DNA of 60,448 nt, from the IMG/VR virus record IMGVR_UViG_3300025099_000002, positions 1-60,448 of that record; one strand, given 5' to 3'. Shown here one piece after another: positions 3,447 to 49,282 of the stretch. The notes under the pieces were generated by a model. The model worked only from the letters and a program-made list of their open reading frames with translations. It made no database searches and was not told the origin of the DNA. Positions within the stretch are counted from its first letter, which is position 1. Every line of letters starts with the position of its first letter. Made by a program: the position numbers and the translations under genes. Source of the stretch: a virus (taxonomy: Duplodnaviria; Caudoviricetes).

Positions 3447-3811
3447 TAGGTGATCTCCATTATACTCAATGTTCCGCTTAGTTTGTCTGCTACAGAACAA
3501 TCAATCGTAATTTGATCTGTAGTTTCTAGTACCACTTTGTTACCAGACATAAGCTCTAATGCACTACTAGCAGGTATAGGTGCATCTTGAACTATAATGC
3601 TTGTACCGTTAGCGGTGTTATTAGTTACTGCTCTGTTTGCTGTATCACTTACTAGTCTAACTGTAGCTGTAACTTGAGATGTGTGTATATTAGATAATAT
3701 CAACCCCAAAACAACTGTAGTTGTACCAGAAGCAGCAGTGTACATTACATACGGTGTACCTGCACTCGCAGGTTCTGCTGCAAAGTTTACAACCTTAAAC
3801 GTGTTTGCCAT
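3446..3811 (-). CDS. Small virion structural protein, probable fibre hub or connector
   Basis: 121-aa beta-rich protein (MANTFK...YTA...GLILSN...KVVLETTD) between the main fibre and the accessory fibres. Confidence 0.55.
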   Translation of the reverse strand: MANTFKVVNFAAEPASAGTPYVMYTAASGTTTVVLGLILSNIHTSQVTATVRLVSDTANRAVTNNTANGTSIIVQDAPIPASSALELMSGNKVVLETTDQITIDCSVADKLSGTLSIMEIT

Positions 3812-3826
3812 GATTTAGTTCCTTTC

Positions 3827-6724
3827 TTATCCTAGTGCAATGGCTAGGGCTGTTGCATCATCTGCTGCCGAAGTAGTGGTGGCTATGGTTCCAGCTACAC
3901 TAGGCAAGGTTAATGTTATATCAGCCGTTGATGCTGGACCGATTAATGTTACTTTATTTGTTCCGTTATCTGAGTCCTCAAAGAACTCTACAAAACCTGC
4001 TGATGTAGCTCCATTCTTAAGTGACATACCTGCATTAAATATATCTTTAGCTGTTGATGTTGATATACCTACCTGGGCAGTAGTTCCACTTATTTCTACG
4101 TTACCATTGATATCTATTAATGTAGAGTTAAGCTCAATCTCATCGTCTGCATTAATGTCTAAATCACCGTCAGCAGGTGAACCAATGTTAATGGCACTGT
4201 CACGAAACTGAACCACCATAGCTGCATTAAGAAGTATACCTGTATCTGCAACGTGTGTCAACGTTACATCTTTATCTGCACCGAACCCTAATACTGCAGC
4301 ATCGCTGTCTAATGTTAAATCATCACCTACAAGAAGATCACCGTCTATATCTACGTCACTAGAGAAGTCACCTGTAGCTGCGTCTAGTTCACCAGTAACA
4401 GTAAAGTTACGTAAACCTGTGTAGTCTTTGTTAGCGTCTAATACAACTGCCTTAGATGCAATCGCTGTACCTATTGCAGTACTACCTAAGTCTAGTGCGT
4501 TGATCTCACCTACAACTACAGTAGCTCCATCTAGTATGTTTAACTCTTCTGGTGTAGAGCTAACTTGAGTATTACTTGCTGCAGCTAGAACGGGTAGTGT
4601 ACCTGATTGGTTAGGTAAGTTAATTGTTCTGTCTGCTGTAGGATCTACAACTGTAAGTGTAGTTTCGTGGTCATCTGCAGTAGCACCTTCAAACACTACA
4701 GCGTTAGCTGCTTCCATAGTAACTGTGTCAACTTGTGTAGTTGTACCTGTTACAGTTAAGTCACCCGATATAGTTACATTGTCTGTAAATACTACATCGT
4801 CTGTTCCTGTAGGAACTCGCATAACAATAGTATCAGCATCGTTTTTAATTGTTACATCATTTGTTGAACCTTGACCTGTAAGGATAAGACCTTCAACAGA
4901 TGTGTAACCTATAGCTGCGTTATCTCCTGCTGCTGTGTCACCTGCTGGCTCTACTGTACCTGAAGTAGTAATGTTACCTGCTGCAACTACTGTACCTGAT
5001 ACATCTAAGTTACCATTTAGATCTACTGTAGTAGCAGCTAATTGTATCTCTGTATCAGCAACAATGTCTAGTTGACCATCTGTGCTAGAGTTTAAGTATA
5101 GCCCTGTATCACGGAACTGTATCTTATTGTCTGTAGCTATAGTTGTAGCAGCAGCTATGTTAACCGCACCATCAATATCAACTATGTCTAAGTTAGCTGT
5201 ACCGTCTATATCTATATCACCAGATATATCTAGTGCTGTACCTATCAGTGTCTGTGTCAGTGTTACCTGACCATTAGAAGCAATAGTTATAGCGTCTACA
5301 TCTGATGCAGATCCTATAGTCTTACCGTCACCTATGATTATGTCATCAGCAAATGTAGCAATACCAGTTACACCTAATGTGCCACTAACATCCATTGTAC
5401 CGTTAACGTCAATAGCTGTAGCGTTAAGCTCAATCTCATCTGTTGCGTTAATGTCTAAGACTGTAGCACTAGGAGCGTTAATAAACTGTGACGCATCGTT
5501 AAACTGCAGTGCCATTGTGCTGTTAAGTAACAAGCCTGTGTCAGCTACGTGTGTCAGTGTGACATCTGTATCAGCACCAAAACCTAGTACTGCAGCATCA
5601 GATAAAAGTGTAAGATCATCACCTACTGTAGCATCAGCAGACATAGTAACATTACCACTAACACTAGCAGTACCGTTTATGTCTATTGTAGTAGCTGTAA
5701 GGTCTATCTCATCTGTAGCACCTAGCGATAATACAGTAGCACTTGAGCCATGTATAAACTGTGATGCATCATTAAATTCTATTTTTCTAGTGCTGTTTAC
5801 TCTTACACCTGTGTCTGGAATATGTGTAAGTGATACGTCTTGGTCAGCACCTAAGTAGATAACTCCTGAGTCACCTAAGTAAAGATCACCGAACTCTAAG
5901 CTAGATGTACCTAGTGTAGCACCGTCAGCTACTGTAGGAACAAACGCTGTACTTGCTGATATAGTAGTACCAACTATTGTACTAGAGCCAGTTATAGCTC
6001 CAGTTACACCTAGTGTACCAGCTACAGTAGCATTAACGTCAACGTCAAGTGTATCAATGTGAGCTGTGCCATCTATAAAAATGTCACGCCATTCTTGACT
6101 GGAGCTACCTAAATCATACGTATTGTCATCGTCAGGTATAATGTGTGAGTCTACATCTGCACCAAACACAACATTGTCTGACGCACTGTCGCCTAACGTA
6201 AGTGTGCCACCATTAAATGTGGTAGTACCTGTAACTGTCGCATTACCTGCTACTGTTAAGTTACCACCTACTGCTAGGTTGCCAGATATATCAGCAGCAC
6301 CATTCATGTCTATAGTAGTAGCTGCTATCTGTATTTCTGTGTCAGCTACAAGATCTAGCTGCCCATCTGCTGAAGAGTTAATGTATATTGCTGTATCACG
6401 AAACTGTAGTTTTTCTGTAGAAGCTACGAGTATGTCATCAGAGAACTCAAAGTAGTCTTCGTCTTCCATCCACGACATTACACCGTCATTAGATTCACCG
6501 TCATACGTTACTACAATGTTTTGTCCTGATGTTCCATCACCTATAGTAATAGTTGTACCTAATAACTTAGTTATAGGACCGCCTTCTGCGGTTGTACCAT
6601 CGTGTGTGTGTCCTGAGCTTGCAGCAAAAGCAGCTAGTAGCTGGTCAAACTCGTTATTAGTGTGGTCTGCGGTAATCGTATCTCCGTCAGTGTAAGACGA
6701 TTGCCTTGTGTAAGTAGCACCCAT
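3827..6724 (-). CDS. Main long tail fibre
   Basis: 965 aa immediately after the nozzle gene. N-terminal anchor (NNEFDQL...GHTHDG); repeated modules (QFRD...ADTEI, QFNDASQFI...ATDEI, SDAAVLGFGAD.DVTLTHVADTG); C-terminal ATALAIALG. Confidence 0.8.
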   Translation of the reverse strand: MGATYTRQSSYTDGDTITADHTNNEFDQLLAAFAASSGHTHDGTTAEGGPITKLLGTTITIGDGTSGQNIVVTYDGESNDGVMSWMEDEDYFEFSDDILVASTEKLQFRDTAIYINSSADGQLDLVADTEIQIAATTIDMNGAADISGNLAVGGNLTVAGNATVTGTTTFNGGTLTLGDSASDNVVFGADVDSHIIPDDDNTYDLGSSSQEWRDIFIDGTAHIDTLDVDVNATVAGTLGVTGAITGSSTIVGTTISASTAFVPTVADGATLGTSSLEFGDLYLGDSGVIYLGADQDVSLTHIPDTGVRVNSTRKIEFNDASQFIHGSSATVLSLGATDEIDLTATTIDINGTASVSGNVTMSADATVGDDLTLLSDAAVLGFGADTDVTLTHVADTGLLLNSTMALQFNDASQFINAPSATVLDINATDEIELNATAIDVNGTMDVSGTLGVTGIATFADDIIIGDGKTIGSASDVDAITIASNGQVTLTQTLIGTALDISGDIDIDGTANLDIVDIDGAVNIAAATTIATDNKIQFRDTGLYLNSSTDGQLDIVADTEIQLAATTVDLNGNLDVSGTVVAAGNITTSGTVEPAGDTAAGDNAAIGYTSVEGLILTGQGSTNDVTIKNDADTIVMRVPTGTDDVVFTDNVTISGDLTVTGTTTQVDTVTMEAANAVVFEGATADDHETTLTVVDPTADRTINLPNQSGTLPVLAAASNTQVSSTPEELNILDGATVVVGEINALDLGSTAIGTAIASKAVVLDANKDYTGLRNFTVTGELDAATGDFSSDVDIDGDLLVGDDLTLDSDAAVLGFGADKDVTLTHVADTGILLNAAMVVQFRDSAINIGSPADGDLDINADDEIELNSTLIDINGNVEISGTTAQVGISTSTAKDIFNAGMSLKNGATSAGFVEFFEDSDNGTNKVTLIGPASTADITLTLPSVAGTIATTTSAADDATALAIALG

Positions 6725-9441: not shown

Positions 9442-9954
9442 TTAAGCTAATAGATCTCTATCAACTTCATTAGCATCGTAATCTCCAGGATTATCTATGT
9501 TCATAAGAACCATCCATACCCGAATCTTACCACCTGTCGGTGCTGTAGTTGCTGCTTGAAGTTCTAGATCCATTGTTGTTGCCGTGGAACCAGTGAGGTT
9601 CGGGAACACACCAGGAATCATAGTAGCATAGGAACCAACCGCCATAGCGTCTGTGTCCATTGCTGCAACGAACTCATCAACATCAGCAGCAATACCACCT
9701 GTAGAGGCAGTAGTAATACCTAAGTTGAATGTTGTGTCGTTTGATTCTCCAGTCAATAGAGCCTCAATTTCGTAACCTGCAGCCATAATAAGAGTATCTG
9801 TTGGTATTGTGAAGATTTGCAAAATATCGTCTGCAGCTAATGCCGCAGCGTTATTTGTGTTTTCTACAGCAATATCAATAGTATTACTTACTAAGTATGG
9901 AGCAGGAGCAGAAGGTCTGTGAACCGCTTGTAAACTTGATGAATATGTAGCCAT
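9442..9954 (-). CDS. Capsid decoration or minor capsid protein
   Basis: 170-aa beta-rich protein with strong GGAGG RBS, directly after the major capsid gene and before the hairpin. Confidence 0.6.
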   Translation of the reverse strand: MATYSSSLQAVHRPSAPAPYLVSNTIDIAVENTNNAAALAADDILQIFTIPTDTLIMAAGYEIEALLTGESNDTTFNLGITTASTGGIAADVDEFVAAMDTDAMAVGSYATMIPGVFPNLTGSTATTMDLELQAATTAPTGGKIRVWMVLMNIDNPGDYDANEVDRDLLA

Positions 9955-9968
9955 TTGTCAGTCCTCCC

Positions 9969-11042
9969 TTACGCTGCGTTGTACTGTGCAACAGTGATAG
10001 CTTCAGGACGAAGTATCTTTCTGCCGTACAAATGCATCCCACGAACAATATCAGCAAAACTATCAGGATCTCGATAGGTTTCTGTTTTATTGATCTGTTC
10101 TGCGGTTGCTATAGCTGAGTCGTGTCCAGCTACGATTACACCAAAGTTAGCGAGTTGGTTTGCAGTACCTGTAGTACCTGGACCTGTGCCAACGGATGGT
10201 AGGTTACTAGAAACATATACACGGAAGCCGCCTAAATTGCTGACTGCTAAACCATTACGTATACTTCCTGACGCACCGAAATCAGCGTTATGAAGACGTG
10301 AATCCTCATCTCGTAAGATTTCCATGAATACTGGGTCAATGACTAACCAACGACCTGCTGTATCAACTTGTTGTTGATCAAGCAAACGAGCCATACGAGC
10401 TATTACCATAAGAGGTGAAGCAGTCGCTGTTGGTAGTGCAGTTGCACCAGGTAGACGAGCAGCAATCGGAATAGAGTGCGACCCTGCGGAACTTGTAGTA
10501 ATGTTACCAAAAGAACCTTTATTTAGCTTCATACTGGACAACAATTCGTCTGTGCCAGCAGTAGCTACTGCAACAGTACCATTAGTAGTTGCATTTACCG
10601 CATCGGCAGATGAACTAAGTGATGACTGTTTGTAACCTGCCAAATAACCAAGTACTTCTTGGTCGTATTGATCAGATAAACGATATGCAGCACGATCTGT
10701 TGCAAGTTGCATGAAGTTAATGTGTGAATGTGCTTCTTCAATGTCGTCCATTTTAAATGCAAAGTAATTTGCTTTATCGACTACAAGTGAGAAGTCTTCA
10801 TCATCAAGATCTTGCGCTTGAACAGTTGTGCCACGGGCATAAGAACTAACCGAAATTTCTGGCTCCTTAATGATCTTGACTGTGTCGCCCTGACCACTAA
10901 TTTCTCCAAAATAATCTGAGTTAGTTATATCGCCCACAACAGTACTCTTGCGGAATGCAAGCTGTACTTTTTTTGAATAGATTATAGCACTAAAATTACC
11001 ATTCGGTAAGTTGCCATAACCTGCTGCGGTTGTGAAAGCCAT
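9969..11042 (-). CDS. Major capsid protein (start revised to 11042)
   Basis: MAFTTAAGYGNLPNGNF...DYFGEI..QGDTVKIIKEP...FADIVRGMHLYGRKILRPEA is an HK97-fold coat pattern; GGAGG RBS; follows the scaffold gene. Confidence 0.9.
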   Translation of the reverse strand: MAFTTAAGYGNLPNGNFSAIIYSKKVQLAFRKSTVVGDITNSDYFGEISGQGDTVKIIKEPEISVSSYARGTTVQAQDLDDEDFSLVVDKANYFAFKMDDIEEAHSHINFMQLATDRAAYRLSDQYDQEVLGYLAGYKQSSLSSSADAVNATTNGTVAVATAGTDELLSSMKLNKGSFGNITTSSAGSHSIPIAARLPGATALPTATASPLMVIARMARLLDQQQVDTAGRWLVIDPVFMEILRDEDSRLHNADFGASGSIRNGLAVSNLGGFRVYVSSNLPSVGTGPGTTGTANQLANFGVIVAGHDSAIATAEQINKTETYRDPDSFADIVRGMHLYGRKILRPEAITVAQYNAA

Positions 11043-11270
11043 AATAAAATCCTCCATTAAGATGTTTGGCTTGAGTTAAAAGCGTAACACTTAGCGAAGA
11101 GGCTGATGTTTTCTAAGGTGCATTAACTGTAACTATGCCTAGCTAAAATTAACGGGCTTATACTTATCAGGTAGTCTTAGTAAGTAGTATAGGCTTGGGG
11201 TTTATAAATAACCTAACTTTAAGAGTAGCTACATATCTGAAGGGTCTTAAAGTTATTGGTTACTTATCTC
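11043..11270 (-). ncRNA. Long structured 5' leader of the capsid mRNA (putative cis-regulatory RNA)
   Basis: About 230 nt with no coding capacity, between promoter and RBS. It folds by inspection into a ~21-bp stem (11204-11267) and a nested multi-stem (11097-11178). Confidence 0.6.
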
Positions 11271-11275
11271 GTATA

Positions 11276-11303
11276 GTTATATACAAATAAAACACAATGT
11301 CAA
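11276..11303 (-). promoter_or_regulatory. Sigma70-type promoter for the capsid operon
   Basis: TTGACA-N16-TATAAC on the minus strand. Confidence 0.7.
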
Positions 11304-11316
11304 TAACTAAATTAAT

Positions 11317-12195
11317 TTAACGGGCTGCTCCCGTAATATCGTAAAAGTTAGGGTTATCTCTAGACGCTTGAAGTATAGCATCCTGATGCTTTTCGTATTC
11401 TTCCATAGACATTTTGTCAACCATAGATTCTGTGTACTTAGGTTTAGATGAGTCTTGATCAGGATTAGCTGAATTACGTTTAGGTACTACTACAGACGCT
11501 GCTTCTTTAGTTGATGCTTTTTTACCTTTAGTGTCTATGCCGTTATCTACTTTATACAAATCTATTACTCTTACTACAGACATTGCATCGTCTGAGTTTT
11601 TGTATAAGGCATCTTTAACCCATTTAGGTTGTACGTCTGCCCAATCATGAAACGCATCACTGTCTTTTAGTTCATCAAAATCAGAATGAGACTTACGTAT
11701 TTCATTTTCAGCTTTAGTTCTTTGAGCTTCAGCGTTTATCTCGTCTATACGTTGTAGTCTATCTTCTGCTTGACTAAACTTTTCTTGCGCTTTCTTTTCA
11801 GCTATAGTTTCAACTATTGCAGCTACATCGGGGTACTTCTCTGCCCATGCACCTATATCTTCGTCTGACTTAGGTGGTCTAATATCTGCTGCTAGGTCAG
11901 GGTTATTGAGGCGTTCTTCTAGAGCTTTTATCTTAGCGTCTTGTTCGTTTATATACTTACGAGCATCTGTGTGTCTTTTCTTGTAAGTTTTTTCTTCTGG
12001 GCTAAGGTTTTCTTCCTTTTTAACTTCTACTTTTTCTTCTACGGGTTCTTCTGTAGAAGCTTCTTCTTCTGGTGCTGCTGTAAGTTTATCTAATTCAGCT
12101 TGCTCTTCTTCGATGCGTCTCTTATTAGCGTTATTGTGTTTGCTATCTACGAAACCTGCTGTTTTAGGTTTTACTACTGCTTCTGGCTCTGGCAT
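11317..12195 (-). CDS. Capsid scaffolding protein
   Basis: Acidic coiled-coil protein (EEKTYKKRH.D...HSDFDEL..SDAFHDW) directly upstream of the major capsid gene. Confidence 0.75.
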   Translation of the reverse strand: MPEPEAVVKPKTAGFVDSKHNNANKRRIEEEQAELDKLTAAPEEEASTEEPVEEKVEVKKEENLSPEEKTYKKRHTDARKYINEQDAKIKALEERLNNPDLAADIRPPKSDEDIGAWAEKYPDVAAIVETIAEKKAQEKFSQAEDRLQRIDEINAEAQRTKAENEIRKSHSDFDELKDSDAFHDWADVQPKWVKDALYKNSDDAMSVVRVIDLYKVDNGIDTKGKKASTKEAASVVVPKRNSANPDQDSSKPKYTESMVDKMSMEEYEKHQDAILQASRDNPNFYDITGAAR

Positions 12196-12252
12196 AATTG
12201 TATTTCCTTTTGTTATATGGGGTCCGTAATTTTACGGAGTAGCCTAGTTGTT

Positions 12253-12281
12253 ATTTTGCCTTATTTGTATTACTGTGTCAA
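12253..12281 (-). promoter_or_regulatory. Sigma70-type promoter for the scaffold gene
   Basis: TTGACA-N17-CAAAAT on the minus strand, followed by a leader hairpin at 12219-12244. Confidence 0.55.
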
Positions 12282-12283
12282 TA

Positions 12284-13483
12284 TTATGTTTTCTTTCTGC
12301 GTGAGATAAAACCACCTTTATTCATAGGCCCCGTGAAACCTGAACCCTCCGTACCATCATCTATACCTGCGGCTGCAGCGTTTGCTGCACCTTGAGCAGA
12401 TCCATAACCAGGAGTGCCATCAAGTGAATAGCCATCCCCTGTATATTGACTATCAGGGTCTGCTTTTGCTTTAGCTATTGTAGCTTGTTGATATGCTTTT
12501 GTTTTTTCATTATGTTTATCAGCGTGTTGTTTATTAAATCTTCCTAATGCATTAACAGCCCAAGAAAAAGGACCTGTATAATTAATCATATCATTAGCTT
12601 TACTCATGTAATCTTGTTGTTGCTCTAATGACATTTTACTAAAAGTAGGTGTCATTGGAACATCATCTGGTCCATCGGGTTGTTCTTTTGGTATTTTCTT
12701 TTTTACTGCTTCTGTAGGTGCAGCTCCTTTTTGTATAGTATCCGCTGTTTTAAAAGACGAACTACCGTAGCCTCCTCCTGTTCCTGGAGTTAAGAAAGCA
12801 TAAGGATTAAAAGCCTCGTTTAGCTGTTGTTGTTGCATCATAGATAACCAATCATCAGCACTATAATTATCTTTAGAGTGATCTCCTCCGTGAGCGTATC
12901 CTTGAACTACGCCACCTTCCATAAATCCTACACCTTTATCGGCTAACTTTTGTTGTAAGGAAGGATTCTTCTGCACTGCACCCATGATACGATCTATTAG
13001 TTGATCTGTTTTAGCGTCATCTTCCATATTCATAGAGGCCTTCTGTGTTACTGCACCGCCTTGCTCACTTTGATCTAAACCTTGTTCTAGACCACCTACG
13101 TTAAAACCTACTGCACCACCCTCACTAGCTTGTAGCACAGATTCTAACTGCTGCATATCATCTGGTGATAGATCTAAACCATTAGGTTGATCTGGGGTTG
13201 GTGCAGTAGGGCCAGGTCCAGCAACAGGTTCTCCACCTATGCGACCTTCATCTGCCATTTTAGCTATTTCCATCTTAGCGTTCTCTCTAAGATCTTCAAA
13301 AAACTTTAACCCGTAGAATCGTAATACATCAGCAGGTACTACATATTCTCCTTCACTCAGCATAGCTGGTACATCATCTCTTACTTCTTCTGGCAGAGAT
13401 CCCATTGGTACATCATTACCGCTTACTGGGTCTTGTCTTCCTGACTCAGATAGAGCCATCTCCATTTGATCATTTACTGCCAT
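12284..13483 (-). CDS. Head-module protein with DDVPAMLSEGEYVVPA domain and xxGG repeats
   Basis: The motif resembles the D.IPA.LS.GE(F/Y)V domain seen in phage tape-measure and virion proteins. It has six xxGG motifs. Confidence 0.55.
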   Translation of the reverse strand: MAVNDQMEMALSESGRQDPVSGNDVPMGSLPEEVRDDVPAMLSEGEYVVPADVLRFYGLKFFEDLRENAKMEIAKMADEGRIGGEPVAGPGPTAPTPDQPNGLDLSPDDMQQLESVLQASEGGAVGFNVGGLEQGLDQSEQGGAVTQKASMNMEDDAKTDQLIDRIMGAVQKNPSLQQKLADKGVGFMEGGVVQGYAHGGDHSKDNYSADDWLSMMQQQQLNEAFNPYAFLTPGTGGGYGSSSFKTADTIQKGAAPTEAVKKKIPKEQPDGPDDVPMTPTFSKMSLEQQQDYMSKANDMINYTGPFSWAVNALGRFNKQHADKHNEKTKAYQQATIAKAKADPDSQYTGDGYSLDGTPGYGSAQGAANAAAAGIDDGTEGSGFTGPMNKGGFISRRKKT

Positions 13484-13691
13484 TTATCTCATCCCTTAAA
13501 TATTTTAATTTACGTAAAGCTGTTACCTCACCTTGACACCTATAGATATCTGCTTCACCTTGCACTTGCTCCATTTTAACGTGTACTTGATTTATTTTTT
13601 CATCTAATACTTTACAAAAAGCATCCCATACGGTTTTATCGTTAGTTATTTTTTTAATTGATATTATATGTTCCACATAACTTCCTGTCAT
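13470..13691 (-). CDS. Small conserved head-module protein
   Basis: 73 aa with an IYRCQGEV.ALRKL motif, resembling the small proteins that often follow portal genes. Confidence 0.55.
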   Translation of the reverse strand: MTGSYVEHIISIKKITNDKTVWDAFCKVLDEKINQVHVKMEQVQGEADIYRCQGEVTALRKLKYLRDEINGSK

Positions 13692-18477: not shown

Positions 18478-20055
18478 TTAATATCCAAATGTTGTATCTG
18501 ACGCTTGAAAGCCAGAGCGTTGTGTAGCAGGATTAAAATCCCATAATGAACTTCTTGGTCTTGTCATAACACCATATCGTAAGGCATCGTATAAGTGGTC
18601 TTCTGCGTGTGTATCTACATCTTCAGGATTACGTTTGTCTAAAGGTAAACTAGGTACTTGCGCTATTGTATTAGTACAACTAGAAAAAAACACTAACCTT
18701 GGTTCTTCTGTAAACTCGTCTACCTGTAGCCTTCTATGTATTTCGTTTTTACCTGATACACGAGAGCCTTTACTTCTGTCGGATGGTCGCCATCTGCAAC
18801 CCTTCATGTTCATCTGTTCAGCTAAACTAGGTCCTGTGTCGCCTCTGTTGTGCCACAGTGAAGAGTCTAACACACCATATCTAATTGTACCATCTTCTTG
18901 TTCTACGTCAAGTATCATGTCAGCTAAATCTGTAGCTGTAACTTTAGTAACATACATTTCTCTGTATACTACTAACTGTTCTGCTGGAGTTACAGCTATC
19001 CATACTACACCAGTCCAGCTACCGTATCCGTAGTCACACGCTCTAAATCTAGTCCAACTCTTAGGTATAGTGTACGGATCTACTACGTGTATGTTACGGT
19101 TAAACTCAGGGAATGCTGCACCTTCGTTTACATCCCAGTTACCTTCTAGTAGTTGCTTACGTTGATGTTCAGGTAGAGATAGAAGCATCGCTTCGTAGTC
19201 ACCACCCTCTGACAAGTAAGGATTATCAAACAAACTAGCAGGTATAAACCTACGTTTAAATAAAGGCTGTCCTTCGCGGCTGTGACCTTTAGGGTATATT
19301 AATGTATCGCCTGACTCTATGTTTGTAGCCCAGAAAGGATCTTTAGCTGGACTAGGGTCGATAAACATCTTCTTAACCCACTGATGTCCTGCACCTCCTG
19401 GGTTGGTAGTTGCTCTCATATACAAACCTAACTCGTCAGAGTGTGCGCTCCTGAGTCTTGATCTCATATAATTCCAAGCGTAAGGAGTACTCCATTGTGT
19501 AAGTTCGTCAAAACCAATCCAATTGAAAGCCTGACCTTGATAACGCATGACATCCATGTCTTTATCGAGGTAAGACATCCAGAGTCTACCACCTCTAGGG
19601 GAAATCCATTGGCTTTTTCGTTCAGACCACTTAATTCCTGGTATTGCTTTAGGATATAGCTCTTGGCTTTTCTGTATAAGCTCACGTAGTTCCTCTGTCG
19701 TGTGTCGGACTAATAAACCACTAAAATTAGGGTTATTTAAGCCGTGTAAGGGGTCAGCAAGCATCGCAAAACTTTTTCCACCACCTGCTGCGCCCCCAAA
19801 TAGTACTTCTCGCTCTGAAGAAGATAAGAAATCTGTTTGTGGTCCTGCGTTAGGAGAAAACACTACGTTTTGTAGCTCTTCTACAGGTATTTCTGATGGT
19901 ATAGGCGTAGCTGCTACTGTTTTAGGCTGTTTCTTCTCTGTAGGAGTAGCTGCCGATACCTTTTTCTTCGAGTTTTTGGATTTCTTCAAGCGTTTCTTTG
20001 AGCCTTCTGGCAAGTTCGCGTTTAATTTTAGCTGATCTCTTACGTTTTTGCTCAA
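18478..20055 (-). CDS. terL: Terminase large subunit (start codon uncertain)
   Basis: Walker A GGAAGGGKS, Walker B IGFDE, coupling motif ATTNPGG, RNase-H-like nuclease with DYG...DHLYDALRY. Confidence 0.93.
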   Translation of the reverse strand: MSKNVRDQLKLNANLPEGSKKRLKKSKNSKKKVSAATPTEKKQPKTVAATPIPSEIPVEELQNVVFSPNAGPQTDFLSSSEREVLFGGAAGGGKSFAMLADPLHGLNNPNFSGLLVRHTTEELRELIQKSQELYPKAIPGIKWSERKSQWISPRGGRLWMSYLDKDMDVMRYQGQAFNWIGFDELTQWSTPYAWNYMRSRLRSAHSDELGLYMRATTNPGGAGHQWVKKMFIDPSPAKDPFWATNIESGDTLIYPKGHSREGQPLFKRRFIPASLFDNPYLSEGGDYEAMLLSLPEHQRKQLLEGNWDVNEGAAFPEFNRNIHVVDPYTIPKSWTRFRACDYGYGSWTGVVWIAVTPAEQLVVYREMYVTKVTATDLADMILDVEQEDGTIRYGVLDSSLWHNRGDTGPSLAEQMNMKGCRWRPSDRSKGSRVSGKNEIHRRLQVDEFTEEPRLVFFSSCTNTIAQVPSLPLDKRNPEDVDTHAEDHLYDALRYGVMTRPRSSLWDFNPATQRSGFQASDTTFGY

Positions 20056-46900: not shown

Positions 46901-48077
46901 GTCTAGTTATTCCGTACCCTATACCAAAACCTAGAACACTACTACCTCCAGCTATAGAACCCTGTAAGAGGCTATACCCTTCAGGCTGTCTTCCAGCTAA
47001 TATTTGCGCTTTTTGATAAGCAGCATCCGTACCCACTCCTATTGACATATCGTATGTACCCCAAACAGCAGCAGCTTTTAGTGCTTTCTTTTTAGTTGTA
47101 TCAACTACGGTATTTACAGCAAACCGTTCCACTTCTTTAGCTGTTTCTCTTTTCATAACTACTTGACCTGCTCTAGTAGCTAACCATTGTTTGCCTTTTT
47201 TCTTTAGGTACTTTTCCGTCACAGTTTGACGAACTAATTTACTAATCTGTGTAGAGGTTAATTTTGTACCTACTTTAGCTAATACACCTCCTATGGGAGT
47301 AGTTGCTAAAAACATAGGTATATTAATAGGGTCCAATATCATGTCTCCCATAAAATCTTTTAAGGCATCACCTCTTTCACCTAATGTAGAACCACTTCTA
47401 AATGTAGCATTAGACATATTTTCGTATAAAGTATAAGCATCTGCTACGTTTTGAAGTTTTTTTACTTGATGTTCAGGTACATTATTAATGCCACTAGATA
47501 TAGCTCCTGTTAGTTCTGTTGGAGAAGTTAAATCAATAGAAGTATCGTCCCTTCCTGAGCTAACTATATGATAGAGGTTTACTAACTCACTTACTGTAGT
47601 ATAACTCTCTCCGTTTGCAAACCCTCTCATACGGTTCATATATTTATCTACTACGTTTTTTCTAGTGTATATAGGGTTCCCTTTTGAATCTAAAGTATTT
47701 TCATTTATACCAAAAGTATCATCCATATACCTTTCAACTATGTAATAGTTATTATCATCCAATAAGTCTGAAGCAAAACGAGCATCTGTTTCTTCTATAG
47801 TAAACTTATCAGCAGGATTTATAGTAGACCTTAAGTAATCAATATCAGGGTTTGAAAAACGATTTAAGTCTGCATCACCAGTATCACTAAAAGTGTAACC
47901 TTGTCCTGCATCTGTTCTAGGAACTACGTGTGTAGAAGTATCAGCTACTTGATAACTAAGATCATCTAAAAAAGAATTAGTAGAAGAAACAGGTTCAACA
48001 CTGAGTTCTTTTTTTTCTTCTACTTCTTTTTCGGGTCGTTTAAGTAAACCAAGAGGAGGTATTCCAACAAAAGCCAT
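43938..48077 (-). CDS. Large internal virion (ejection) protein
   Basis: 1379 aa, helical, last gene of the ejection block (T7 gp16-like position). Confidence 0.65.
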   Translation of the reverse strand: MAFVGIPPLGLLKRPEKEVEEKKELSVEPVSSTNSFLDDLSYQVADTSTHVVPRTDAGQGYTFSDTGDADLNRFSNPDIDYLRSTINPADKFTIEETDARFASDLLDDNNYYIVERYMDDTFGINENTLDSKGNPIYTRKNVVDKYMNRMRGFANGESYTTVSELVNLYHIVSSGRDDTSIDLTSPTELTGAISSGINNVPEHQVKKLQNVADAYTLYENMSNATFRSGSTLGERGDALKDFMGDMILDPINIPMFLATTPIGGVLAKVGTKLTSTQISKLVRQTVTEKYLKKKGKQWLATRAGQVVMKRETAKEVERFAVNTVVDTTKKKALKAAAVWGTYDMSIGVGTDAAYQKAQILAGRQPEGYSLLQGSIAGGSSVLGFGIGYGITRHAQKRAAKRGDKVVEYELLPHQLLRGERSKGLRKLDADGNPIPIGPVKKVSGGSLPLTLHAIDSIPANRTKAVAEQNRLAIEKVNGSEFIEQITERLKDWKTRSDGWSKKVMDGTIKSFDAEGSNLMNDRAGVLFKGFLMGDADSGVRGLIKELDEMGIVVPENYRQEGYKHFTDWLTTTVKSLPDPIKKEVNEVWKSSVSSKIRGLEGTNLDEGMNVLAAQAAEQGFALNTLKQAQDALRKAAGRTPKEKVLNAIKNEVGVDAEELGSRNAFLDYIKEKVPHPIRNAAGTMSRFQANLIKSMVAHPGTTSLNLSGWTTASAMNTISDTTRAVLYGGAGIAARVGSKEMSQDMLTKSGLLFKLQVQKVRNLADPGGTQEATMNFLAANPEAKEALFRFLSGGIETDTMIKGLDIDEAFLKEFNITDELMAEILGQKPKTNFYDKYINLMQTVSGVKHQDMLSKTQEFIYQFDKQIRLNHKVTLTEFFQDDNLWKNVEGIGSNGRSYIEMQSKAVEDTLRTVFSKKYGDAQGDLVQQAANIVEDFHKVPVVGLFIPFGQFFNNTIAHMADHTGGSLLLKAMSDGIDLVSQTGGKQKVSKKVFNSQQDYGDLVAKTSAGWVLATALMYDEARNMEEDLPINADRGKDGQIRDFTYMFPLNFYRTMGRVFNYRAQGLEIPDEFKDTIIRQYGVENLTRELGKSQAQFWGGVIGMLEDDKEFGGENRKYPEGFLQSTLLELAGRFTSAGTRSADMVNMPLALLRGEDYVEYDRRNADVTNQSFLNGIRYVDQMFAAINDIAGGEDFAKRKFKPLTRENGRIPFNRLFGARYLNKQTNIEKMFAKIGRPDWKGGIKSYLPAVNNRMNEVIYDFLEKEAKVVYNSPSWNDPKNKQEDWVNMTNATITAAKKSALEFLEKTDSSDMDIKTAALYKLTKSSGIPLSELDSYMQIAGFPNKRPEELTTNQIEKVISAYKTNKFLQESQAKEARAGR

Positions 48078-48085
48078 TATTTATC

Positions 48086-49282
48086 CTATCTGTTACCTTT
48101 TATTAATTTACCATTTATAAATGCGTAAGGCACTGAGTAAGTGTTACCTCTATACATTGTACTTAATTGTTTTTCGCTATTAAAAACCCCTATTTGACTA
48201 AAAGGAGGTATGTTTGGATCGTTTTGTTTAGCTATATCGTATTGCCTACGTAACTCTGCATCATACTTAGATCTTTCAGATTTATATATAGCTACTAGCT
48301 CAGGTGCATTTTCATTATTTGAAATAACACCTGGATTAGATATTTCGTCTATTACTAATGATCTAAAAGAATTTGTAAAAGGTACATCAGGTTGATATTT
48401 AGCAAACCAAGCTTCTCGTTTTTGTTCTGCTAAATACATATCTGTAATATCATCACTTATATATGCTTTATTTAGGTCATCTCCCCATTCCGCAAAAGCC
48501 ACAAACCCAGCATCACCTTCTTTCAAACCCTTTACAGAAGGTCCTCTATTATCATAAATACGTTTTACGTTTGCTTTAACACTTGCTCTAAAAGCTGATG
48601 CATTACGAATTTTTTGATCGGGTGTATACTGTGTTGGAAATACGTTTGGATTAAATGTAAATGCATTGGTAGTTTGATCATCATAACTAGCTGTTATCGT
48701 AGGATCAGTAGAAGCTATACGTCTAATATCTCTGCCTGTGAACTCTCCTGAACCAGCAAATGGTCTGTTTAACAAGGCCTCTACGTCATATCTATTCTCT
48801 CGTTTAAAGGGTGATTTAATACCAAAAATACTAGCCAGCCTACTGTTTTCTTTATCTTCTACAGGATCAACAGGGTTGCCTCTGTACAAACCAAAATACT
48901 TATCAATAGCACTCGTAAAGTTTAAGTTTGATTCTGATGCGTCTTCTGCTATAGCATAATTTATAGAATCATTAAATGCTTCAGGTGTTATGTCGTCTCT
49001 TTTATCCACAGTTGCATATACACTAGCTAAACCGTCTAACTTACCGTGATTAAGTATGTGCATAATACTTCCAGGAGTAGCTATGCCCTTTTGAATCATT
49101 CTGGTTGCCATTTGTTTATATGCACCTGCATCCTTTTTATTTCTCTGTAAAGCAGCAAGACCATCTCCACTCAACCACGAATCTGTCTCCTTGTAATACT
49201 CTTTCATCCAATCACGATCTTCTTTTTTTATAGCAGTGTATTGTCTTGCTGCACCGCCTAAACCTGCTAAAAACAACGACAT
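48086..49282 (-). CDS. Internal virion protein
   Basis: 398 aa, N-terminal FLAGLGGA, within the ejection block. Confidence 0.5.
   Translation of the reverse strand: MSLFLAGLGGAARQYTAIKKEDRDWMKEYYKETDSWLSGDGLAALQRNKKDAGAYKQMATRMIQKGIATPGSIMHILNHGKLDGLASVYATVDKRDDITPEAFNDSINYAIAEDASESNLNFTSAIDKYFGLYRGNPVDPVEDKENSRLASIFGIKSPFKRENRYDVEALLNRPFAGSGEFTGRDIRRIASTDPTITASYDDQTTNAFTFNPNVFPTQYTPDQKIRNASAFRASVKANVKRIYDNRGPSVKGLKEGDAGFVAFAEWGDDLNKAYISDDITDMYLAEQKREAWFAKYQPDVPFTNSFRSLVIDEISNPGVISNNENAPELVAIYKSERSKYDAELRRQYDIAKQNDPNIPPFSQIGVFNSEKQLSTMYRGNTYSVPYAFINGKLIKGNR

Follow-up and report, generated by a model that had tools for sequence, protein, structure and literature searches.

Why do the capsid and the scaffold mRNA of a tailed phage begin with the same small RNA loop, and what could such a loop do there? 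The question is raised by the virus record IMGVR_UViG_3300025099_000002 of IMG/VR (Duplodnaviria; Caudoviricetes), which was analysed over its full 60,448 nucleotides (nt); this whole stretch of DNA is called the window in the following. An original prediction, made from the letters of the window alone, had described structured leaders ahead of the major capsid gene and the scaffold gene on the minus strand. One asymmetric, C-rich internal loop was reported four times in these leaders, and they were interpreted as a protein-binding RNA that sets the scaffold-to-coat stoichiometry, or else as a processed non-coding RNA. As judged from comparative sequence analysis, the leaders belong to a real and widespread RNA family, in which the shared loop, here called the module, links the capsid and the scaffold mRNAs. 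The interpretation given in the original prediction is, as a whole, partly supported.

The module is an asymmetric internal loop between two helices, with a short strand of the form G-CC and a long strand of the form (C/U/A)(U/C)AC-C. The capsid leader has three copies and the scaffold leader a single one. All stems, loops and positions described earlier on the minus strand proved correct (Table 1), as did a CAAGCC repeat with copies at 11197-11192 and 11073-11068. The capsid leader contains a 5' hairpin (P1) with module 1, followed by a rod. At its outer end the rod comprises an AAGA:UCUU helix, module 2 (CUAC 11174-11171 opposite CC 11102-11101) and a CUGAU:AUCAG helix. A purine-rich loop (AGUA 11164-11161 opposite GAA 11113-11111) and an AAG:CUU helix occupy the middle, and the inner end is formed by module 3 (CC 11156-11155 opposite CAC 11120-11118), an inner helix and the apical hairpin P5 (11145-11130). 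In the rods of relatives the helix after module 2 is 3-5 bp long and the one between the purine-rich loop and module 3 is 3-4 bp. In all copies the C that follows the long strand is paired with the G that precedes CC; thus the module has one fixed polarity, which is read in either hairpin direction.

To follow the capsid leader in other phages, a search with the coat protein was used, which gave 80 IMG/VR loci with 80-96% identity. Ten of these were too short upstream. In all 70 usable loci the spacer between the scaffold and coat genes was 221-293 nt long, and 63 distinct spacers were obtained. RNAalifold predicted 19 pairs from these 63 leaders, 16 of them with compensatory changes. For the structure of 32 pairs drawn by hand, 88.5% of 1936 cells were able to pair in 62 distinct leaders. 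Its covariation score was 0.380 compared with 0.153 in column shuffles (0/500 reached 0.380) and 0.05-0.10 with slid partners. P1 alone (49 distinct sequences) showed compensatory changes at all nine pairs, with a score of 0.758 against 0.216, and P5 covaried at 8/8 pairs. Thus homologous leaders keep the stems and loops, with covariation. G-U pairs were common (13 and 10 rows at two pairs of the structure, for example), from which we concluded that the fold belongs to the mRNA-sense strand.

Covariance models were built from 60 rod cores (R2) and from 23 scaffold hairpins (R1), and P1 was matched by a third model, R3 (27.0 bits, E 1e-5). The rod of the window scored 69.8 bits with R2 (E 4e-18), which was the sole significant match within the window. 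An exact pattern of the 3' half of the rod was present in at least 120 IMG/VR stretches, and R2 found exactly one match per locus in 100/100 of the loci selected by this pattern. In the R2 alignment 90.3% of the cells paired and the score was 0.355 versus 0.137, values that are favoured both by the selection of loci by pattern and by the fitting of the alignment to the model. A coat homologue followed the rod on the same strand in 115/117 loci, at a median distance of 51 nt; in the other two the contig ended. Among named phages, R2 detected the rod before the coat gene in CRP-9 (82 bits), HMO-2011 (55), the freshwater podovirus MW202701 (47), CRP-603 (46) and CRP-3 (30). The match in Rhizobium phage RHph_N3_19 was weak (14.7 bits, E 0.11), with both modules visible by eye, and no rod was detected by R2 in the divergent CRP-738. 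In HTVC033P (31 nt), HTVC115P (58 nt), CHOED (26 nt) and RHph_TM27A the coat spacer was only 26-58 nt long.

The same rod pattern was also searched in one genome per prokaryote species. A single match was found (L207, 6132-6158), on a 76-kb contig of a metagenome-assembled genome of Candidatus Woesearchaeota, which may be a phage contig that was wrongly binned with an archaeon. This lone contig was uninformative as to the host, and inference of a host from the search was dropped.

The earlier claim of one loop in four places, in different stems and both polarities, was borne out, in that the loop letters are nearly fixed and the flanking helices covary. The short strand of capsid modules 1, 2 and 3 read GCC in 60, 63 and 63 of 63 rows. 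The long strand of module 1 was CUACC in 49 rows, CCACC in 7, UUACC in 5 and CUACU in 2; that of module 3 was GCACC in 50/63 rows, and that of module 2 often had a fifth base. Two of the four modules of the window close with A-U, while G-C is the norm in the family. Counting the motif in the window gave less: a loose descriptor (4 bp, CUAC/CC, 2 bp) matched 11 times on the minus strand against a shuffle mean of 5.3, and with a G-C closing rule there were 4 minus-strand and 9 plus-strand matches versus 4.85 expected. Because these counts are near background, covariance models were used instead. R1, R2 and R3 found no further copies in the window beyond the two leaders. A match of R3 on the plus strand at 48067-48104 (18.4 bits, E 0.007) runs antisense to the start of a gene and lacks the inner helix, and one of R1 at 18699-18733 (12.4 bits, its next best in the window) lies inside a coding region; both were judged to be chance matches.

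Module 4 lies in the hairpin of the scaffold leader, shortly upstream of the ribosome-binding site (RBS, AAGGA 12209-12205) and the start codon (12195-12193). R1 matched this hairpin at 12217-12246 with 39.7 bits (E 7e-8) and nothing else in the window significantly. In the hairpin alignment 100% of 161 cells paired, the score was 0.369 compared with 0.140, and compensatory changes were seen at 3/5 inner pairs. A second set of 80 loci, collected by means of an alignment of six scaffold homologues, yielded 70 distinct scaffold leaders. In 64 of them a module with at least 4+2 flanking pairs ended no more than 25 nt from the start codon, as against 34/1400 shuffled sequences. Its letters were CUAC/CC in 58, CCAC/CC in 5 and CUAC/CU in 1, and the six leaders that were missed have near variants. 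The 3' strand of the module abuts GGAGG in two loci (L247 and L260). The outer helix covaries as well, being GG:CC, UAUAG:CUAUA, AG:CU, CUGG:CCAG or CUAG:CUAG. In 11/70 scaffold leaders, and likewise in HMO-2011, RHph_N3_19 and MW202701, a double module was present in which both strands read GG-CUAC-(5-6 nt)-CC-CC. Such a double module would form a two-fold symmetric duplex, of the kind bound by dimeric proteins.

Beside the scaffold hairpin a repeated hexamer was noticed. AUAAGG lies directly 5' of the hairpin, its GG being the outer helix, and a second copy, AUAA(A)GGA, forms the RBS on the 3' side (12248-12243 and 12212-12205 in the window). Both copies were present in 27/46 distinct leaders of the GG...CCCC type (loci L212-L291), and the CC after the hairpin loop could in principle pair with either GG.

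We also asked with which genes the module occurs. In three more distant phages, namely Rhizobium phage RHph_N3_19 (scaffold homologue with E 3e-35), Pelagibacter phage HTVC115P (E 4e-33) and Vibrio phage CHOED (E 2e-14), a homologue of the scaffold gene lies ahead of the coat gene, and the module in turn lies ahead of this homologue. The Pelagibacter phages have the variant CUAC opposite CA (HTVC033P, L201, 3812-3845, minus strand; HTVC115P, L209, 1353-1414), with two tandem modules before the scaffold gene of HTVC115P; neither of the two phages has a long capsid leader. CHOED has AUAC/AC instead of CUAC/CC, the same variant as CRP-738. As the first base of each strand has changed jointly, this variant fits a defined three-dimensional contact. 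In RHph_TM27A no module was found before the protein in the scaffold position, which is not detectably related (E 0.06), and in P22 none was found before gene 8, where the spacer is 13 nt and the scaffold is likewise not detectably related. Since the module is present with the homologues and absent before the unrelated proteins, it tracks the scaffold family and not the host lineage in this small sample of related phages.

The genome itself resembles, at the DNA level, the Roseobacter phages of the CRP series and Puniceispirillum phage HMO-2011. The record is that of a complete virus with direct terminal repeats, and the phage is a complete HMO-2011-type podovirus. Its structural genes are densely packed on the minus strand in the order portal (PF23899), three unassigned genes, scaffold-like gene and coat gene; the scaffold-like gene owes its name to where it lies, after the portal region and before the coat gene. 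The coat start was taken as the ATG at 11042 behind GGAGG, and relatives begin at the aligned ATGGC; the listed start of the open reading frame at 11057 is an in-frame upstream ATG. In the freshwater relative MW202701 (L202) the annotation places an HNH endonuclease gene (3689-4258) after the scaffold gene and before the coat gene, with the rod immediately downstream of it; the rod match (3626-3712) runs into its annotated end.

Table 1. Positions in the window of the leader elements and of the genes next to them.
Feature	Position	Strand	Description	Basis
Promoter-like site before scaffold leader	12253..12281	-	TTGACA, 17 nt, CAAAAT	10/12 consensus matches
Scaffold hairpin with module 4	12219..12244	-	GG, CUAC 12242-12239, 6-bp helix, loop, CC 12222-12221, CC	Sequence, model R1
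Scaffold-like gene	11317..12195	-	292 amino acids	phrog_13678 (function unknown); no Pfam family
Sigma-70-type promoter of capsid transcript	11276..11303	-	-35 TTGACA 11303-11298, 16-nt spacer, -10 TATAAC 11281-11276	Sequence reading and conservation
P1, 5' hairpin with module 1	11204..11267	-	Short strand CC 11244-11243, long strand CUAC 11228-11225; closing pair A-U in this phage	Minimum free energy structure, covariation, model R3
Segment 1	11184..11200	-	Contains CAAGCC; 5' strand of P2, the long-range helix closing the rod domain	Duplex energies
Rod	11097..11178	-		Minimum free energy structure, covariation, model R2
Segments 2 and 3	11064..11092	-	Segment 2, 3' strand of P2, about 11090-11080; segment 3, CAAGCCAAAC, 11073-11064	Duplex energies
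Capsid RBS and start codon	11040..11055	-	GGAGG 11055-11051; start codon 11042-11040	Sequence reading
Major capsid gene, P22 coat type	9969..11042	-	357 amino acids	phrog_267 E 2e-61; PF11651 E 1.5e-7

Whether the capsid leader is transcribed at all depends on where its mRNA starts. TTGACA-N16-18-TATAAC opens 62/63 distinct capsid spacers, 3-18 nt past the scaffold stop codon, and the remaining spacer was incomplete in the extraction. In the window the promoter predicts a transcript start near 11269 and so a leader of about 227 nt, and across the capsid leaders P1 starts about 2-20 nt after the predicted start. Contigs from four RNA libraries of four studies covered the coat gene and together 10500-11251, reaching into the leader as far as 11251, inside P1, in one run; one contig piece (10852-11092) spans the capsid start codon. 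These contigs cannot show transcript ends or prove transcription, and carry-over of DNA is possible; their cover agrees with a transcript start near the predicted promoter. The conserved promoter and the contigs argue against a start site close to the RBS. The scaffold gene was without contig cover in 4/4 runs, and this absence is not evidence. Before the scaffold leader a promoter-like site was seen only in the window and in its closest relative (L002), whereas in the other relatives the stop codon of the upstream gene lies directly before the hairpin.

The layout of the capsid transcript is also that of T7 gene 10, which has its own strong promoter directly after the scaffold gene and a capsid mRNA that opens with a hairpin. 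Here too a dedicated promoter lies between the scaffold and capsid genes and P1 is a 5'-terminal hairpin. The present leader differs in its host-type sigma-70 promoter, its length, the 150-nt rod, the repeated modules and the presence of the module on the scaffold leader as well.

From this arrangement a separate small non-coding RNA released from the leader could be imagined, as the original prediction had offered, because the element is long, highly structured and located behind a strong promoter. We consider this highly improbable. No terminator-like site (intrinsic terminator or attenuator) was found on the minus strand at 11043-11316, which includes the stretch between rod and RBS; the capsid homologue follows the rod in nearly all loci, as described above; and the contig piece across the start codon joins leader and coding region.

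An RNA processing or elongation signal would be another explanation, either a site at which a ribonuclease of host or phage enters or cleaves, so that the scaffold and capsid messages are separated, or an antitermination RNA acting over the late operon. The put RNAs of phage HK022, stem-loops that come in pairs, with conserved irregularities, shortly after phage promoters, would be the model for the latter. The two leader spacers are the only sizeable ones in the structural block (about 274-275 nt ahead of the coat gene, 88 nt ahead of the scaffold gene), and a long co-directional operon begins with a promoter and, directly after it, the capsid element. Contigs on the capsid gene and leader and not on the scaffold gene, in four runs, give a weak hint in the same direction. 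On the other hand, the helices of most relatives are too short for RNase III (7+2 bp in P1, 2+5 bp in the scaffold hairpin), and most scaffold leaders have no promoter of their own, which also sets them apart from put RNAs. Taken together, we regard a signal of this sort as improbable.

Folding of the single sequence was proposed earlier as a check, and its outcome was mixed. In the minimum free energy (MFE) structure of the capsid spacer given by RNAfold, P1 and the inner rod were present (-56.3 kcal/mol, z -2.43; 3/200 shuffles folded as well), but the outer AAGA:UCUU pairs of the rod were not. The folding energy of the scaffold spacer was ordinary (z -0.55; 44/200 shuffles as good). Because of this weak scaffold energy and the near-background descriptor counts, support from the single sequence is suggestive but not decisive.

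The pairing of the rod domain with its surroundings is less settled by covariation, which was limited for P2 on MAFFT columns. The segment 1:2 duplex is feasible in all sequence groups, at -4.6 to -12.5 kcal/mol (-6.6 in the window), including those in which 2:3 fails. In most relatives segment 3 can replace segment 1 as the partner of segment 2 (-8.6 for 2:3 versus -6.6 kcal/mol for 1:2 in the window), and the MFE structures of the leaders use the 2:3 pairing. One relative (L070) has about 50 extra nt with a predicted hairpin of their own between segments 2 and 3 (alignment A1, columns 250-300).

Such alternatives could make the capsid leader a conformational switch, a sensor similar to a riboswitch. 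In state A segments 1:2 and AAGA:UCUU would pair, module 2 would be formed and the RBS would be free; in state B segments 2:3 and CCUCU:GGAGG would pair and mask the RBS, the choice being made by a ligand, an ion or folding kinetics. Segments 1 and 3 are indeed alike and both complementary to segment 2. The RBS was fully paired in the MFE structure of 51/62 leaders, state B lay a median of 4.6 kcal/mol below state A (n=57), and the CCUCU-GGAGG pairs formed in 92.3% of cells. However, opening the RBS cost a median of 3.75 kcal/mol as compared with 3.19 kcal/mol after dinucleotide shuffling of the part upstream of it (62 vs 248; p 0.003, from related sequences), and because this excess is only 0.56 kcal/mol, masking of the RBS was demoted to a rival explanation. 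The 2:3 and anti-RBS pairings are moreover missing in the L012, L038 and HMO-2011 groups, and the scaffold leader has no such alternative pairing. As the helices of both pairings barely vary, covariation cannot decide the matter. A switch thus appears to be a rather remote explanation of the leader.

Comparison with described RNA families gave no relative. In Rfam 15, cmscan of 9500-13500 and 11030-11330 at E<=10 gave best matches of 16-17 bits against thresholds of 40-75, all to unrelated families, and no family reached even half its gathering threshold. Nor did a testable match come from other known elements that were considered, namely NusB/E boxA, lambda boxB, RNase III sites, the tetraloop receptor, SRP RNA loops and rho-loading sites. 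The only match of the autogenous ribosomal-protein kind was the S15 leader RF00114, with 10.6 bits against a gathering threshold of 39.5, of which the element is not a member. In the literature, judged from titles and the openings of abstracts, no description of the leader element was found, and neither there nor in Rfam was a defined RNA element for coordinating capsid and scaffold synthesis found.

Known regulatory leaders nevertheless offer comparisons. Autogenous leaders of ribosomal-protein mRNAs are structured 5' leaders bound by the encoded protein, and often mimic modules of rRNA. In autogenous operators the element would be expected to overlap or abut the ribosome-binding region, which was found for the scaffold leader; the capsid modules lie further upstream. 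The operator of E. coli thrS is a hairpin with an asymmetric internal loop near the RBS, and its protein, a dimer, competes with the ribosome by binding to two related hairpins. The phage elements share with it this kind of hairpin and its place close ahead of the RBS, but differ in having no tRNA-like anticodon loop, a 2x4 loop, a place on two mRNAs and a partner that is only a candidate. For P22, the parts of bioRxiv 10.1101/2022.12.13.520362 consulted implicate the N-terminus of the scaffold protein in translational autoregulation. P22-type assembly of coat and scaffold (PF11651) is shared with our phage, and by analogy the logic of coupling synthesis to unassembled protein may be shared too. 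P22 differs in its short spacer before gene 8, the lack of a module and its unrelated scaffold, and the consulted parts of that source name no RNA operator.

The original prediction had also likened the loop to C-loops. In the excerpts of PMC4551918 and PMC9516175 used here, C-loops have three unpaired bases, the first often C, opposite 0-2 bases, with crossing non-Watson-Crick pairs; that of potato spindle tuber viroid (PSTVd) is 1x3 (PMC9516175). An asymmetric loop between Watson-Crick pairs in a hairpin stem is what we found, as the helices on both sides of modules 1-4 covary. By the strand lengths in these excerpts module 3 (G-CAC-C opposite G-CC-C) is of C-loop size, whereas the long strand of modules 1, 2 and 4, CUAC, has four bases and is one too long. 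Membership is therefore plausible, on sequence grounds, for the CAC copy only. In a C-loop the crossing pairs make two base triples with the flanking pairs, and the joint change to AUAC/AC in CRP-738 and CHOED is the only hint of such contacts here. The excerpt of PMC9516175 further mentions a C-loop in 'a bacterial mRNA' (Torres-Larios 2002) and a role in translational regulation. In the rod, AGUA opposite GAA, in register with an adjoining helix, matches the example sequence for the sarcin-ricin (bulged-G) motif in the part of PMC4551918 consulted, a likeness in letters that may extend to the fold.

If these loops are motifs of this kind, the leaders could be intrinsic elements without a dedicated regulator. 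P1 and the scaffold hairpin would then protect the 5' ends of the mRNA (or processed 5' ends), the rod would compact the leader and aid ribosome loading, and the module would be a C-loop-like three-dimensional motif that sets helix twist or docks on the 30S subunit. The position of P1, about 2-20 nt past the predicted start, is suited to this, as stabilising hairpins usually lie close to the transcript start. A self-organised fold is suggested by the AGUA/GAA loop, present in the window and in 38/60 rod cores, and the occurrence of the module in phages of both Alpha- and Gammaproteobacteria is expected of a universal partner such as the ribosome. C-loops are moreover described as architectural motifs in the excerpt of PMC4551918. 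A stabiliser would, however, need neither letters that are fixed across four unrelated settings nor dyad double modules, and close relatives with homologous coat genes have no long capsid leader (HTVC033P, HTVC115P and CHOED, see above). We hold an intrinsic element, which may be a stabiliser or an enhancer, to be possible but on the unlikely side; it is the main rival of the explanation that we prefer.

Tentatively, and short of confidence, we favour instead that both leaders act in cis to regulate the mRNAs to which they belong, those of scaffold and capsid, and that the module would dock one trans-acting factor that controls translation. The capsid mRNA would start at a strong host-type promoter just past the scaffold stop codon, and its leader would fold into P1 and a long irregular rod. 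The shared factor would most likely be a head-assembly protein of the phage, with the scaffold protein as the first candidate. Attached to the foot of the scaffold hairpin, which ends a few bases ahead of the RBS, it would limit the entry of ribosomes; attached to the capsid leader, it would couple coat synthesis, or the life of the mRNA, to the same pool of free factor. The mode of action may be likened to that of the autogenous operators of ribosomal-protein and threonyl-tRNA synthetase mRNAs. A shared factor was preferred because of the fixed loop letters in four settings, the placement at the scaffold RBS, the dyad double modules, the co-occurrence with the scaffold family and the precedent of P22. 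Fixed letters in four helical settings and in both polarities, with covarying flanks, would not be required by a plain stabilising stem.

Several points weigh against a shared factor. Steric blocking cannot explain the modules of the capsid leader, because tens of bases separate them from the RBS downstream. Four loci of the first set (L069, L071, L072 and L073) have modules in the capsid leader and none in the scaffold leader. The variable letters of the long strand showed no concerted change among the modules of one genome, as far as a crude and noisy parse by regular expressions goes. P22, the one phage with known autoregulation by its scaffold, has no module. The correlation with the scaffold family rests on a handful of phages with shared ancestry, and the module could be purely architectural.

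A more specific form of the shared-factor reading would make the module an RNA operator that senses the unassembled pool of dimeric free scaffold. Dyad double modules and single ones at the scaffold RBS would throttle scaffold translation, the three capsid copies would tie coat output to it, and palindromic apical loops (GGCC, GCGC, AGCU) would let two capsid leaders kiss. This we consider doubtful. As an observation on the rod itself, the apical loop has a self-complementary centre of four bases in 42/54 rod cores with P5 (GGCC in 28, GCGC in 11 and AGCU in 3), and no single-step intermediate between GGCC and GCGC was seen, which would fit loop-loop kissing of two leaders. The window's own apical loop (11139-11136; alignment A3, columns 58-61) reads GGCA.

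Structured mRNA leaders that respond to proteins are well known in bacteria. Here one module marks both mRNAs; it is kept, with covarying helices, in well over a hundred phage contigs from the environment, and is found as well in the cultured phages CRP-9, CRP-603, CRP-3 and HMO-2011. If no binding partner exists, the leaders would still be a new and widespread leader RNA family of abundant ocean viruses. If a partner is found, the matching of scaffold and coat output to assembly would become a tractable RNA-protein problem, and a compact recognition module would be added to the catalogue of recurrent RNA motifs. Should the module indeed be an operator for the scaffold protein, assembly-coupled control of head proteins would for the first time have a defined RNA target in a tailed phage, and this within one of the most abundant groups of marine phages.

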